Source of the DNA: Deferribacterales bacterium
GTDB taxonomy: Bacteria > Chrysiogenota > Deferribacteres > Deferribacterales > Geovibrionaceae
Assembly (NCBI GenBank): GCA_050253075.1
Contig: JBFWJS010000006.1
Location: 96,001 to 160,000, forward strand
Reading direction: 5' to 3'
DNA: 64,000 nt
In this document: positions 27,044-64,000 of the stretch, piece by piece
Position numbering within the stretch: the first letter of the stretch is position 1
How the letters are laid out: each line of letters starts with the position of its first letter
Made by a program: the position numbers and the translations under genes
The notes under the pieces: model-generated
What the model saw: only the letters and a program-made list of their open reading frames with translations
What the model was told of the DNA's origin: nothing
The model's database searches: none

Positions 27044-27126
27044 CGTCATCCTGAGGCTTTAGCCAAAGGATCTGAACACGTGGATTCTCTAGTGGTATCA
27101 GATTCTTCGCTCCGTTCAGAATGACG
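27044..27126. repeat. Inverted dimer of GTCA-tagged REP-like palindromes (family 1)
   Basis: CGTCATCCTGAGGCTTTAGCCAAAGGATCT ... AGATTCTTCGCTCCGTTCAGAATGACG; same B/C pair as in the 58.6-59.5 kb array. Confidence 0.85.
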
Positions 27127-58562: not shown

Positions 58563-59505
58563 CGTCATTGCGAGGAGCGTAGCGACGCGGCAATCCTAGC
58601 CCTAACACAAACTGTCATCCTGAATGAAATGAAGGATCTGTGCATGTCAGATTCTCCGCCTGTGGCTCAGAATGACTACCAAATATACGTCATTGCGAGG
58701 AGCGTAGCGACGTGGCAATCCTATCTCTAAATACAAACTGTCATCCTGAATGAAATGAAGGATCTGTATATTTCAGATTCTTCGCCCGTGGCTCAGAATG
58801 ACTACACATCATATGTCATTGCGAACGCAGTGAAGCAATCCTAGCCCTAAATATAAACTGTCATCCTGAATGGAATTAAAGATCTGTACATTTCAGATTC
58901 TTTGCCCGTGGCTCAGAATGACTACCAAATATACGTCATTGCGAGGAGCGTAGCGACGTGGCAATCCTAGCCCTATATATAAACCGTCATACTGAATGAA
59001 ATGAAGGATCTGTACATTTCAGATTCTTCGCCCTTGGCTCAGAATGACTACCAAATATACGTCATTGCAAACGCAGTGAAGCAATCCTATCTCTAAATAC
59101 AAACTGTCATCCTGAATGAAATGAAGGATCTGTACATTTCAGATTCTTCGCCCGTGGCTCAGAATGACTACACATCATATGTCATTGCGAACACAGTGAA
59201 GCAATCCTAGCCCTAAATATAAACTGTCATCCTGAATGAAATGAAGGATCTGTACATTTCAGATTCTTCGCCCTTGGCTCAGAATCACGAGTACGCACAT
59301 TAATAGGAATCCTAAGATTGCTTCGTCATTCCACTCCTCGCAATGACCTTGAATTTAGCGTCATTGCGAACGCAGTGAAGCAATCCTATCTCTAAATACA
59401 AACTGTCATCCTGAATGAAATGAAGGATCTGTGCAGTTCAGATTCTTCGCCCTTGGCTCAGAATGACTACCAAATATACGTCATTGCAAACGCTGTGACT
59501 GCAAT
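58563..59505. repeat. Tandem array of GTCA-tagged REP-like palindromes (7 A-B-C trimers, 1 inverted A, 1 terminal A)
   Basis: A units start 58564, 58689, 58815, 58935, 59061, 59181, 59360, 59480; B = GTCATCCTGAATGAAATGAAGGATCT; C = AGATTCTTCGCCC(G/T)TGGCTCAGAATGAC; inverted A at 59316-59347. Confidence 0.95.
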
Positions 59506-59900
59506 TATGATTTTATGAATTTAAGATGTACTTTGCGTGTGCGGGGGCCGTCGAATTCACAGAAATATATACCCTGCCAGGTGCCGAGCACCATATTTCC
59601 GTTTTCCACTATAATAGTTTCCGAACAGCCGATGAGAGATGATTTTATATGACTGTCAGAGTTCCCCTCAGCGTGGCGGAACTCTGACAGATTTGGTATT
59701 AACTTTGAAAGAAATGAGTTCATATCCCTTTGCACATCAGGGTCGGCGTTTTCATTTATCGTGACGGCGGATGTGGTATGCGGTGTGTAAACCACCAGAA
59801 TACCGTCCTGCCAGCCGTTTGCCCTGAGCACAGCCTGCACATCCCCCGTGATCTCCACAAAGGCGCACCGTGTGCCTGTCCTTACGGATATGGTCTCCAT
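59505..59900 (-). CDS. YjbQ/UPF0047 family protein
   Basis: HTTSAVTINENADP, H.EGNSDSHIK, LGTWQGIYFCEFDG. Confidence 0.93.
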   Translation of the reverse strand: METISVRTGTRCAFVEITGDVQAVLRANGWQDGILVVYTPHTTSAVTINENADPDVQRDMNSFLSKLIPNLSEFRHAEGNSDSHIKSSLIGCSETIIVENGNMVLGTWQGIYFCEFDGPRTRKVHLKFIKS

Positions 59901-59904
59901 ATTA

Positions 59905-61530
59905 TTAGAGAGTGATAACCTTCGCCTCTATCATTCCGTCGAGAGCGAGGATCTCTTCGAGAACACCCGCAGGAACTTTTCCGTCGATGCGTACGAAAGC
60001 AACTGCATCGTCGCCCTTCTGATCTCTGGAAAGGTCGAAATCTGCGATGTTCACATTGTTATTTCCGAGGATAGTACCCACTTTACCGATCATGCCCGGT
60101 TTGTCCTGGTTGTTGAAGTAAAGGAATGTACCGTCGGCGATAAGGTCTGTGTAGTACTTATCATAGATAAGGAGTCTGCCTGTGTTATCGGCGAAGACTG
60201 TACCTGCGTAGACCTTCTCTTCTTTATCTGTTTTAACTTTGATAACCACAAGGTCGTTGAATTTGCCGAAGTGAGCTGCTTTTGTCTCGACTATGTCGAT
60301 ATTGCGCTCTTTAGCCACGTATGGAGCATTGATGAAGGATACTGTCTCCTTCACTGCCACTTCCATAAAGCCTTTCAGACCTGCGATGGTAAACGGCTGA
60401 AAGTTAAAAGGAGTGTCGAATGTACGCTCGCCGAAGTCTTCCTCAAACTTCTGTCCGACCATAGCGACCTCGATGGATTCCGCCCTGCCTTTTGTGAGCT
60501 GTGCAGCCATGTGGCCCATGCTCTCGAGGAGCTCGAAGTATCTCTGCATCTCTTCAGGAAGCTGTGTCTTCATGAATGGGATGTTCACGGCGTTTTTGTA
60601 TGATCTGCCGTGGAGAGCGTTTTTAACCTGCTCTGCGATGAGAACGGCAACGCCGTACTGACCTTCGTGAGTGTTTGCGCCGATGTGCGGTGTAACATAA
60701 ATGTTGTCCACTTCGAAGAATGGATGGTTCACAGGGGGCTCGGCAACGAAAACATCGAGACCCGCAGCATGAACCTTACCAGATTTACATGCTTCCACAA
60801 GGTCGAGCTCGTTCACGATACCGCCGCGTGCGCAGTTGATGATGACAACACCGTCTTTCATCTTTGCTATTTCGTCTTTTGTTATCATATTTTTTGTCTC
60901 GTCTGTGAGAGGAGTGTGGAATGTGACAACGTCAGCCTGAGCCAGTGCTTCTTCGAGCGTTTCGCAAAGCTCAACGCCGAGTGCTTCTGCTCTGGATTTT
61001 TTGATGTATGGATCGTAAGCAACAACCCTCATGTCGAAGGCTCTGCATCTTTTCGCAACGTTTCCGCCGATACGGCCAAGACCGATAACGGCGAGTGTTT
61101 TCTGATAAAGCTGGATACCCATGAAGCGCTTTCTGTCCCATTCACCTGCCTTTGTAGACTGGTTTGCAGCGGGGAGCTTACGCACGACAGACAGCATCAT
61201 AGCCATTGTCAGCTCGCAGGCAGCGAGAGTGTTGCCCGTGGGAGCGTTCATAACGATGATACCTTTCATACTGGCAGCTTCGATATCGACATTGTCGAGA
61301 CCAACGCCCGCACGTCCGATTATCTTGAGTTTTCCAGGGTTTTCGATAAGGTCAGGAGTAACAGTTGTTCCGCTTCTGGTGATGATAGCGTCGTAGTTAC
61401 CGATGATCTTCTTCAGCTCAGGATTTTTGATCCCTGCCTGAATATCGACCTCTATATCCTTGTCGTCTTTGAGGATATTCACACCGTCCTGAGAGATGTG
61501 ATCAGTGATGAGAACTTTATACTTGGCCAT
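59905..61530 (-). CDS. serA: D-3-phosphoglycerate dehydrogenase (ASB + ACT type)
   Basis: GRAGVGLDNVD, GLGRIG, INCARGG, TPHIGA, ACT domain DKPGMIG. Confidence 0.96.
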   Translation of the reverse strand: MAKYKVLITDHISQDGVNILKDDKDIEVDIQAGIKNPELKKIIGNYDAIITRSGTTVTPDLIENPGKLKIIGRAGVGLDNVDIEAASMKGIIVMNAPTGNTLAACELTMAMMLSVVRKLPAANQSTKAGEWDRKRFMGIQLYQKTLAVIGLGRIGGNVAKRCRAFDMRVVAYDPYIKKSRAEALGVELCETLEEALAQADVVTFHTPLTDETKNMITKDEIAKMKDGVVIINCARGGIVNELDLVEACKSGKVHAAGLDVFVAEPPVNHPFFEVDNIYVTPHIGANTHEGQYGVAVLIAEQVKNALHGRSYKNAVNIPFMKTQLPEEMQRYFELLESMGHMAAQLTKGRAESIEVAMVGQKFEEDFGERTFDTPFNFQPFTIAGLKGFMEVAVKETVSFINAPYVAKERNIDIVETKAAHFGKFNDLVVIKVKTDKEEKVYAGTVFADNTGRLLIYDKYYTDLIADGTFLYFNNQDKPGMIGKVGTILGNNNVNIADFDLSRDQKGDDAVAFVRIDGKVPAGVLEEILALDGMIEAKVITL

Positions 61531-61846
61531 TAAGTTAACCTCGATAAAATATACATATATGTGTTAGAAGAGAACAGATAATAGCAAAACAGATATTATT
61601 TGACAAGCCAAAACATACTAAAATAATGGGAATTGAACCTATTCTCTGCATTGGCTTATTCTGCCGCACAGACAACGCCCGGAGAGTCTGATAGATAACA
61701 TAAAATATTATTAAAAAAGATATTAATACCAACTTTAGCTCATATTAAAAACCATTTCAAAGTTAATTTTGTAAAACAACTTGACAGCAAACGGTTTTTA
61801 CTGCTTGAATACATGAATATATTATACATTTATTGAGGTGAAGCAG

Positions 61847-62860
61847 ATGGCTTTTAATGACCTTTTACTCAGAACTATGAACGGTGAAAAAACTGACAGA
61901 CCTCCGGTATGGTTTATGCGTCAGGCCGGAAGATACATGGAAGAATACAGAGAAGTACGCAGCAAGGTTTCCTTCCTTGAGCTTTGCAAATCCCCGGAGC
62001 TTTGCACAGAAGTTACACTGCAGCCGATCAGAGCTTTCGGCTTTGACAACGCTATCCTCTTCTCAGATATCCTCATCCCTATCGAGCCTATGGGTGTCGA
62101 TCTCGACTTTAACCCTGCTCCTGTCATATCAAATCCTATCCGCACACTTGCGGATGCAGATAAACTTCGCGAGATAGACCCTGCGAAGGACGTTCCTTTC
62201 GTGCTTGAGACAGTGAAAATGCTCGTAAAGGCTCTTGATGTGCCTCTTATCGGTTTCTCAGGCGCACCTTTCACACTCGCCTGTTACATGGTAGAGGGTA
62301 AAGGTTCTAAAAACTATGAATATATCAAAACTATGATGCACGCAGACCCTACAACATACAGAGTAATGATGGAGAAGCTCGCAAACTCTACCCTGAAGTA
62401 CCTTCAGGCACAGATAGACAGCGGTGCTCACGTCGTTCAGATGTTTGACACATGGGCTGGCGTCGTTTCTAAATATGACTATGAGAAATTCATATTCCCA
62501 TACGTTGAATACATCGCAAACAACCTTAAAGGTGCTCCGCTCATCTATTTCGCAAAAGACAGCTTCAGCTTCTATGACATCATAGGAAAGCTGAAATGTG
62601 CAGGAATGGGTGTAGACTGGAAAACAACTCTCGCAGACGCAGACGAAAGACTCGGCAAGGGCAAATTTGTCCTTCAGGGTAACTTCGACCCTGTTCAGCT
62701 CTTCGGTAGCAAAGAATCCATCAAGGAAACAGCCGAAAAGATCCTCGCAGAGGGTAAAGACCTTAAAGGTCATATCTTTAACCTCGGACACGGTATCCTC
62801 CCTCCTACTCCTAGAGAGAATGTGGACTACCTTGTTAAGGTCGTTAAAGGGGAAGCATGA
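61847..62860 (+). CDS. hemE: Uroporphyrinogen decarboxylase
   Basis: PVWFMRQAGRY, FSDIL, GAPFTLACY, NLGHGI; start at ATG 61847 after GAGGTG. Confidence 0.97.
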   Translation: MAFNDLLLRTMNGEKTDRPPVWFMRQAGRYMEEYREVRSKVSFLELCKSPELCTEVTLQPIRAFGFDNAILFSDILIPIEPMGVDLDFNPAPVISNPIRTLADADKLREIDPAKDVPFVLETVKMLVKALDVPLIGFSGAPFTLACYMVEGKGSKNYEYIKTMMHADPTTYRVMMEKLANSTLKYLQAQIDSGAHVVQMFDTWAGVVSKYDYEKFIFPYVEYIANNLKGAPLIYFAKDSFSFYDIIGKLKCAGMGVDWKTTLADADERLGKGKFVLQGNFDPVQLFGSKESIKETAEKILAEGKDLKGHIFNLGHGILPPTPRENVDYLVKVVKGEA

Positions 62861-63804
62861 AAAAAGACCTGCTTTATGTGATGTATATGGGCGGTCCTGA
62901 TAGTATCGAAGGGATAGAGGAGTTCCTCTTTAATCTCTTTTCGGACCGCACCATCATCGACTTTCACATCGGCGGCACACTCCAGACATTCATAGCGAAA
63001 AAGATAGCTAAAAAACGCTCCGTTAAAGTTGCGCCCGAATATGAAAAGATAGGCGGACGCTCTCCGCAGCTCCCCTACCTTCAGGCTATTCTGGAAAAGA
63101 TAAAGCCGCTCTACCTCACTGAAACAGGGCGTGAGCTCGTCACCGATATCGGTATGTGCTATTACCATCCGTACATCGAGGACTCCATACAGAAGCATAA
63201 CGGTGCAGACTATGAAAATATCATAGTCACCAGCATGTATCCGCAGTATTCATATACCACCAGCGGTGTGTGCTTCGACAGATTTGCAAAGGTGCAGAAG
63301 CTCGTTAAAGAACCTAAGATCATCAAAGAATGGTACCGTAACGAAGCATATAATAAATGTATCTCAGACAGGATACTCAGAGCAGCGGAAAAGCTGGGCA
63401 AGGACATAACCGACTGCCACGTGGTATTCTCTGCGCATTCCCTCCCCGAATACACCGTTAAAAAAGGCGACGTTTACACCATGCAGATAAACGAGCAGGT
63501 GAAAAAGCTCGTCAGCATGACACACCCGAAAACATATAACCTCGCATACCAGAGCCGTACAGGCCCCGTGAAATGGGTCGGTCCATACACGGATAAAGAG
63601 CTCGAAAGGCTCACGGCAGAGCGTGTGGATAACATCATCGTCGTGCCTATATCGTTTGTATCCGACCACATCGAGACTCTGATAGAGCTGGACGAGCAGT
63701 ATATGCCGCAGGTGCGTGAGGCAGGGCTGAATATCGTCCGCATCGAAAGCCTGAACGACTCAGACGACTTTGCCGAGGCATTCTTAAATATAATATCCGC
63801 ATAA
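62857..63804 (+). CDS. hemH: Ferrochelatase
   Basis: MGGP, GGRSP, YPQYS..T, FSAHSLP, QSR.GP..W, FVSDHIETL.ELD. Confidence 0.96.
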   Translation: MKKDLLYVMYMGGPDSIEGIEEFLFNLFSDRTIIDFHIGGTLQTFIAKKIAKKRSVKVAPEYEKIGGRSPQLPYLQAILEKIKPLYLTETGRELVTDIGMCYYHPYIEDSIQKHNGADYENIIVTSMYPQYSYTTSGVCFDRFAKVQKLVKEPKIIKEWYRNEAYNKCISDRILRAAEKLGKDITDCHVVFSAHSLPEYTVKKGDVYTMQINEQVKKLVSMTHPKTYNLAYQSRTGPVKWVGPYTDKELERLTAERVDNIIVVPISFVSDHIETLIELDEQYMPQVREAGLNIVRIESLNDSDDFAEAFLNIISA

Positions 63805-63806
63805 CA

Positions 63807-63840
63807 GTCATCATGAGGAGTGATAACGACGTGATGATCT
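63807..63840 (+). repeat. Single GTCA-tagged palindrome (family 1 variant D)
   Basis: GTC-ATCAT-GAGGAGTGATAACGACGTG-ATGAT-CT; core like type A, stem compensatorily changed. Confidence 0.8.
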
Positions 63841-63856
63841 CAGACTAGGCACACTT

Positions 63857-64000
63857 ATGAGAAACGGTTATGTTTACATAATAACTAATTCAAACAACTC
63901 AACTCTTTACGTTGGTGTAACTTCTAATATCAAAAAGAGAATATACGAGCACAAACAGAAATTTATTGACGGTTTCTCTAAAAAATATAACCTTACAAAG
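63857..64000 (+). CDS. Small GIY-YIG nuclease (UPF0213-like), truncated by window end
   Basis: Own translation: MRNGYVYIITNSNNSTLYVGVTSNIKKRIYEHKQKFIDGFSKKYNLTK; YVY..LYVG.T..R..EH motif. Not in ORF track. Confidence 0.9.
   Translation, partial: MRNGYVYIITNSNNSTLYVGVTSNIKKRIYEHKQKFIDGFSKKYNLTK

Follow-up and report, generated by a model that had tools for sequence, protein, structure and literature searches.

At its right end, the stretch analysed here (the window: 64,000 nucleotides (nt), G000:C6:96001-160000, where G000 is the genome and C6 the contig) carries the first half of a gene for a small GIY-YIG nuclease of the Ssn family, which sits between two inward-facing, GTC-tagged hairpins and forms with them a cassette inserted between hemH and ubiA. 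Positions above 64000 are given in extended window coordinates. The cassette and its left edge are laid out as follows:

62857-63804, plus strand: hemH, the host gene at the left edge of the cassette; its last 18 nt are unlike the empty allele of a close relative
63807-63839, plus strand: upstream hairpin, class T3 (GTC tag, arm ATCAT, GA...GTG hinge), 2 nt past the hemH stop
63857-64000, plus strand: 5' half of the Ssn-family nuclease gene; full open reading frame (ORF) 63857-64144, 95 amino acids (aa)
64157-64189 (G000:C6:160157-160189), minus strand, beyond the window end: downstream inverted T3 hairpin, arm ACTCT, tag GTCAC

The reading frame is complete, from the ATG at 63857 to its end at 64144 beyond the window, and its product matches the Pfam GIY-YIG domain PF01541 (E 7e-16). 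Its GC content is 0.29, versus 0.46-0.48 in the neighbours hemE, hemH and ubiA (hemH 0.48), and the upstream hairpin ends 16-17 nt before the ATG. The preliminary description of this stretch was thus accurate in seeing a stand-alone GIY-YIG gene, more AT-rich than hemH and preceded at 16 bp by a GTCA-tagged palindrome, and the inverted palindrome that it expected past the stop is present.

Aligned to the NTS-flanked protein of Neisseria gonorrhoeae, the window protein shows 42% identity over residues 6-95 (E 3e-20, 95% cover); the peptides of this comparison protein agree with those encoded by the SsnA mutagenesis primers listed by Chenal et al. (2025, PMC11893778). Measured against this ortholog, it is shorter than 150 aa, with an E value below 1e-10 and more than 75% cover, the size and homology that define a single-domain Ssn. 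Residues Y7, Y18 and E65 align with SsnA Y6, Y17 and E64, the three catalytic residues whose mutation is described as abolishing SsnA cutting (PMC11893778), and are invariant in 29 of 29 aligned rows. Indirectly, Supplementary Data 4 of that paper scores cd10448 as positive for all 5 of 5 named genomes with relatives. The predicted structure has a GIY-YIG fold (predicted local distance difference test 93.9) and in a structure comparison resembles small GIY-YIG proteins and Slx1; a sequence search of the PDB with the window protein gave no match, and a viral scan with this single protein as query found no match either. Judged by its sequence, the gene encodes a single-domain GIY-YIG protein of the Ssn family with its catalytic residues intact.

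The hairpins share one plan: GTC, a 5-nt arm, GA, an inner part, the complementary arm and C, with GNA as the commonest tip of the inner stem and an unconstrained base before GTC. Shuffled-sequence counts rule out chance as their origin: there are 21 perfect-stem elements in the window, where 100 shuffles averaged 0.05 (maximum 1), and 286 in the genome, where 3 shuffles gave 0-4. The first pair of the inner stem covaries; its two bases are complementary in 258 of the 285 elements, against a mean of 180 and a maximum of 199 under permutation. Classes were set by the 3' side of the hinge: S2 has GA/GA, A3 a C-ending arm and a 3-nt hinge, and T3 a T-ending arm with GA/GTV, which divides the 286 elements into 123 S2, 94 A3, 49 T3 and 20 unclassed. 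Head-to-head dimers are of one class in 72 of 78 cases, where permutation gave a mean of 30 and a maximum of 44. A search of Rfam gave no match. The published SRM motif has 0 matches in the window and 12 in the genome, versus 8-15 by chance; SRM is a search pattern, so a mismatch marks a repeat variant, not a separate protein family. As the preliminary description had anticipated, such palindromes are enriched near homologs of the gene: at 27 of 42 GTDB loci against 0 of 41 control windows, and at 15 of 20 loci of the phylum against 1 of 17.

G000 carries three Ssn genes, 55-67% identical and placed in three housekeeping gene junctions, each with its own class of flanking hairpin: A3 for the gene after hemL, S2 for that between hisF and hisE, and T3 for the window gene. 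T3 repeats are concentrated across the phylum in G000 (53), G025 (20) and G024 (6), with 0-1 in the other 65 genomes, and the only two proteins with Tyr71-Lys72 among 122 classed ones come from G000 and G025, the top T3 genomes. The closest homolog of the window protein in the phylum, in G025, is 65% identical, has an internal stop and is mostly flanked by T3. Genomes with a Gly71 protein hold at least 10 A3 repeats in 10 of 10 cases, and the 4 genomes with a Lys71 protein have no A3 repeats and 19-68 S2. As separate observations, up to 8 Ssn matches per genome occur in the Bacteroidota sample (G068, G100, G156, G180, G204) and the Patescibacteria sample has genomes of about 1 Mb with as many as 4 (G393, G395, G422, G427, G480); just upstream of the A3-type paralog, at G000:C2:446447-446754 (L019), the 3' end of hemL is duplicated exactly over 89 nt, an unrelated structured repeat separating the two copies.

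How far does this pairing of protein and hairpin extend? From 201 loci examined, 37 were dropped (27 with short flanks, 10 with weak matches) and 161 distinct proteins kept, with hinged flanks in 83, continuous stems in 40, none in 37 and a tie in 1. Trp75, which the window protein lacks, occurs at every one of the 40 continuous-stem loci and at none of the 83 hinged loci; for Gly71 the counts are 62 of 65 A3 loci and 0 of 17 S2/T3 loci. The SRM motif occurs at 28 of the 40 continuous-stem loci versus 0 of the 83 hinged ones. The rule was written down before the same script was run on 93 new, held-out loci, the best-scoring matches in three other phyla plus six paralogs, of which 92 were kept. 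Scored by hinge only, 76 of 77 classifiable loci came out as predicted, and 15 of the 92 had no detected hairpin; the single exception, L334 (G443:C3), has no Trp75 yet continuous-stem flanks. In the model, the catalytic helix is followed by a turn made of residues 71-72, and residue 75 stands at the start of the next helix. Across many bacteria, then, the residues at positions 71 and 75, read from sequence, predict the class of the flanking hairpin, so that stem type does co-vary with the nuclease, as had been suggested, and the rule likely reflects how these enzymes choose their cut sites. We did not find the residue rule or the hinged classes in print; subscription papers or figures may hold them.

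Elsewhere in the window, hairpins of the same superfamily form an array and a dimer:

58564-59500: hairpin array, 23 elements; the unit, one A3 element and a head-to-head S2 dimer, is repeated in tandem about 7.5 times; T3 is absent
59316-59347, minus strand: inverted A3 element breaking the array (179-nt unit), beside an S2 element at 59288 whose tag is damaged
27045-27125: head-to-head S2 dimer; its family is dispersed and has a spacer of 28 nt (19 dimers so spaced in the genome)

Both had been noted in the preliminary description and are there as described, 20 of the 23 array elements by the strict rule and 3 with damaged tags. The array has a period of 120/126 nt and a super-period of 246; its units have common spacers and differ at 1-12 of 76 nt, as expected of tandem duplication, by which it most likely grew from the unit of A3 plus S2 dimer. 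Its site is empty in three of four relatives compared and holds one A3 dimer in the fourth. All these palindromes had been taken for one family, which is correct for the superfamily and not for the classes: array and 27-kb dimer hold A3 and S2 only, and T3, the class of the window gene, is absent there. We therefore reject a link between the window gene and the nearby array; the array is built from the classes that flank the two other paralogs, so nearness to the window gene is not pairing, and the proposal that this gene expanded the array finds no support. A second mixed A3/S2 array lies at G000:C3:84948-85630, across an assembly gap, and within yjbQ, at 59653-59690, there is a perfect 13-nt inverted repeat.

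The hemH-ubiA cassette is a lineage-specific insertion. None of the 15 other genomes of the family has the Ssn gene at this junction, and bridging contigs of about 96% identity from two studies join hemH to ubiA without it, 418 bases being replaced there by 158 others; a third run shows loose ends at both of these points. The replacement patch takes in the last hemH codons, and its joints fall 20 nt and 15 nt beyond the hairpin tags on the outer side. In G025 a gene-less T3 dimer was seen by eye at this junction, and an exact-pattern search of JGI metagenomes for the empty allele gave 0 hits. At hisF-hisE, a tail-to-tail dimer is present in two direct copies, one on each side of the Ssn gene, and the single dimer without the gene is found in one contig at depth 3.7 and, by eye, in six genomes. 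Apart from this, a palindromic repeat of the CCCTCC...GGAGGG type occupies the same junctions elsewhere (L028 and L031, hemH-ubiA in G036 and G033; L111), and the hemH end resembles a hotspot for several repeat families.

These patterns invite the idea of a true equivalent of the REPtron, in which the nuclease would serve as a dedicated mobiliser, cutting out both the hairpin dimers and its own cassette and inserting them again. The placement of three genes at three housekeeping junctions would fit, as would the hisF-hisE gene between direct dimer copies with a one-copy empty allele, although deletion between direct repeats explains the latter equally well. The cassette has no target-site duplication (the longest shared flank word is 5 nt) and, with 418 nt replaced by 158 nt, no clean empty site or joint of the kind shown by an insertion sequence or a miniature inverted-repeat transposable element. 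GIY-YIG enzymes hydrolyse DNA without a covalent intermediate and are not known to have a strand-transfer step. Nor does another enzyme offer itself: no HUH/Y1 transposase had been noticed in the window, and PF01797 is absent from the whole G000 genome, while the control search found it in 6 of 14 genomes. None of 14 other loci (12 Y1, 2 weak GIY-YIG) has a GTC hairpin of this kind, and we therefore reject RAYT as the partner enzyme, an exclusion that the idea of a dedicated Ssn mobiliser can claim in its favour. One small contig, G014:C2, carries 17 identical-scoring Y1 transposase copies, with none of the six fetched near GTC hairpins.

Repeat load speaks on both sides. Ssn matches are patchy (16 of 68 genomes), and 15 Ssn-positive genomes all have at least 9 repeats, with a median of 49 versus 4 in the negatives, counts in which kin are not independent. 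The suggestion that copy number tracks the nuclease is thus upheld in the medians and fails in 10 of 53 Ssn-negative genomes with at least 40 repeats. A profile search of these ten found no Ssn and distant GIY-YIG matches in two only; the single-contig genomes G023 and G029 have about 120 repeats and no Ssn match, so repeat-rich genomes without the gene, named beforehand as a finding that would tell against the link, do exist and count in part against it. With such orphan families, we consider a dedicated mobiliser doubtful. What can be read from the data is that the unit has been gained and lost; they do not reveal a transposition reaction, and active spreading stays a hypothesis.

Alternatively, the system could be a domesticated host function, restricting incoming single-stranded DNA (ssDNA) at hairpins as SsnA does, or using the repeats as RNA elements at gene ends. 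SsnA is described as lowering transformation in Neisseria (PMC11893778). ComEC and DprA are present in G000, but also in 10-11 of the 14 genomes searched as controls. Of the 286 elements, only 8 fall within long ORFs and 111 are found between convergent ORFs. The patchy occurrence of Ssn and the lack of an Rfam match do not suit a host role. We regard such a function as rather unlikely, and it would be compatible with the explanation that we prefer.

That explanation, which we consider probable, is that the window gene encodes an Ssn-family nuclease, a likely cutter of hairpin ssDNA whose predicted specificity is for its own flanking class, T3, and not for the array. The protein would bind a hairpin folded in ssDNA and cut a few bases 5' of the GTC tag; the hinge, which itself may be a sheared G-A stack, may be read by residues 71 and 75, located where the chain turns past the catalytic helix. 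Cuts at hairpins, repaired by host recombination, could yield new head-to-head dimers and could also move or delete the Ssn gene. Several results pull the other way, beside the missing target-site duplication and the repeat-rich Ssn-negative genomes. Standard DNA folding gives z from -1.9 to +0.65, no gain over shuffles, which a sheared G-A stack at the hinge, familiar from nucleic acid chemistry, would explain. The converse link, from S2 repeats to an S2-type protein, fails in G036, G026 and G028, where 75-185 such repeats occur and no protein of this type was found; the arm-letter prediction (T-ending arms for S2) failed at 6 of 11 S2 loci; and all substrates in the oligonucleotide list of PMC11893778 are continuous stems, none hinged. 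On the tree, Trp75 requires only 2 changes, near to one event, so that its link with class may be co-descent, and the 9-11 inferred S2/T3 origins fall on unsupported branches, leaving 1 independent pair and a test without power.

Could co-descent be all there is, with gene and hairpins spread together by horizontal transfer and homologous recombination and residues 71 and 75 marking clades with little real discrimination between classes? The poorly resolved tree, the low GC of the window gene, a replacement patch that covers the last hemH codons, as from recombination, and the cross-cutting reported among Ssn homologs (PMC11893778) would all agree with this. Yet the nearest neighbour outside the motif is an A3 protein for 10 of 17 S2/T3 proteins, paralogs within one genome keep different classes (G000, G068, G071, G330), and dimers sort by class. 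We therefore think co-descent alone improbable and prefer a class-specific Ssn nuclease.

The residue-level rule opens Ssn specificity to direct experiment and can guide the search for new site-specific ssDNA cutters, and the three pairs in one genome are a natural cross-specificity panel for asking whether such enzymes spread their own repeats. The large hinged branch (83 of 161 proteins in the first sample) is invisible to the published SRM motif. A bolder claim, that Ssn proteins are the missing CGTC mobilisers and that they read non-canonical G-A hinges by a two-residue code (71, 75), which would let a single genome run three independent enzyme-repeat families, we put forward only tentatively; if true, new ssDNA specificities would be predictable or switchable from sequence.

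Finally, we would place the cassette among known systems. The preliminary description knew of no established enzyme for CGTC-tagged repeats, but one has been published: Ssn proteins are small nucleases of the GIY-YIG type whose only substrate is ssDNA, cut immediately 5' of CGTC-tagged hairpins; their partnership with NTS/SRM hairpins is described there, and the analogy to repetitive extragenic palindromes (REPs) and RAYT is proposed (PMC11893778). Like SsnA (cd10448), the window gene encodes a single-domain protein of about 95 aa with catalytic Tyr/Tyr/Glu, flanked on both sides by GTC-AT...AT-C hairpins with hundreds of dispersed copies; unlike there, the stem of the hairpins is 5 bp long, has a G-A hinge and falls outside the SRM motif, the protein lacks Trp75, and three paralogs, known here from sequence, go with three classes. 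With the CGTC REPs, defined by Di Nocera et al. (2013, PMC3733652) with no transposase found for them, they share the GTC tag, AT at the stem base, mostly head-to-head heterodimers and no adjacent Y1 transposase. The REPs of that survey have 8-9-bp stems and 4-5-nt loops instead of a 5-bp stem, hinge and inner stem, and the base before GTC is free in ours; this separation follows the survey's text description, ours may overlap with CGTC-3/4, and by its own account the survey may have missed bulged types. No enzyme was assigned to the CGTC repeats in that survey, and the substrates tested in the 2025 Ssn paper were continuous stems only. The REPtron (RAYT/TnpA-REP with GTAG REPs, REPINs and BIMEs) likewise has an enzyme gene between cognate hairpins, dispersed dimers, tandem mosaics and orphan repeats after gene loss, but G000 has no HUH/Y1 protein and the tag is GTC, not GTAG. 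Of the REPtron-like unit first suggested for this locus, the hairpin-gene-hairpin order stands, as does cutting of ssDNA at such hairpins by relatives (PMC11893778), while the tie of gene to array does not. The Ssn-hairpin system was already known; what is added here is a hinged repeat variant, three gene-class pairs in one genome and a residue rule that links protein to hairpin.

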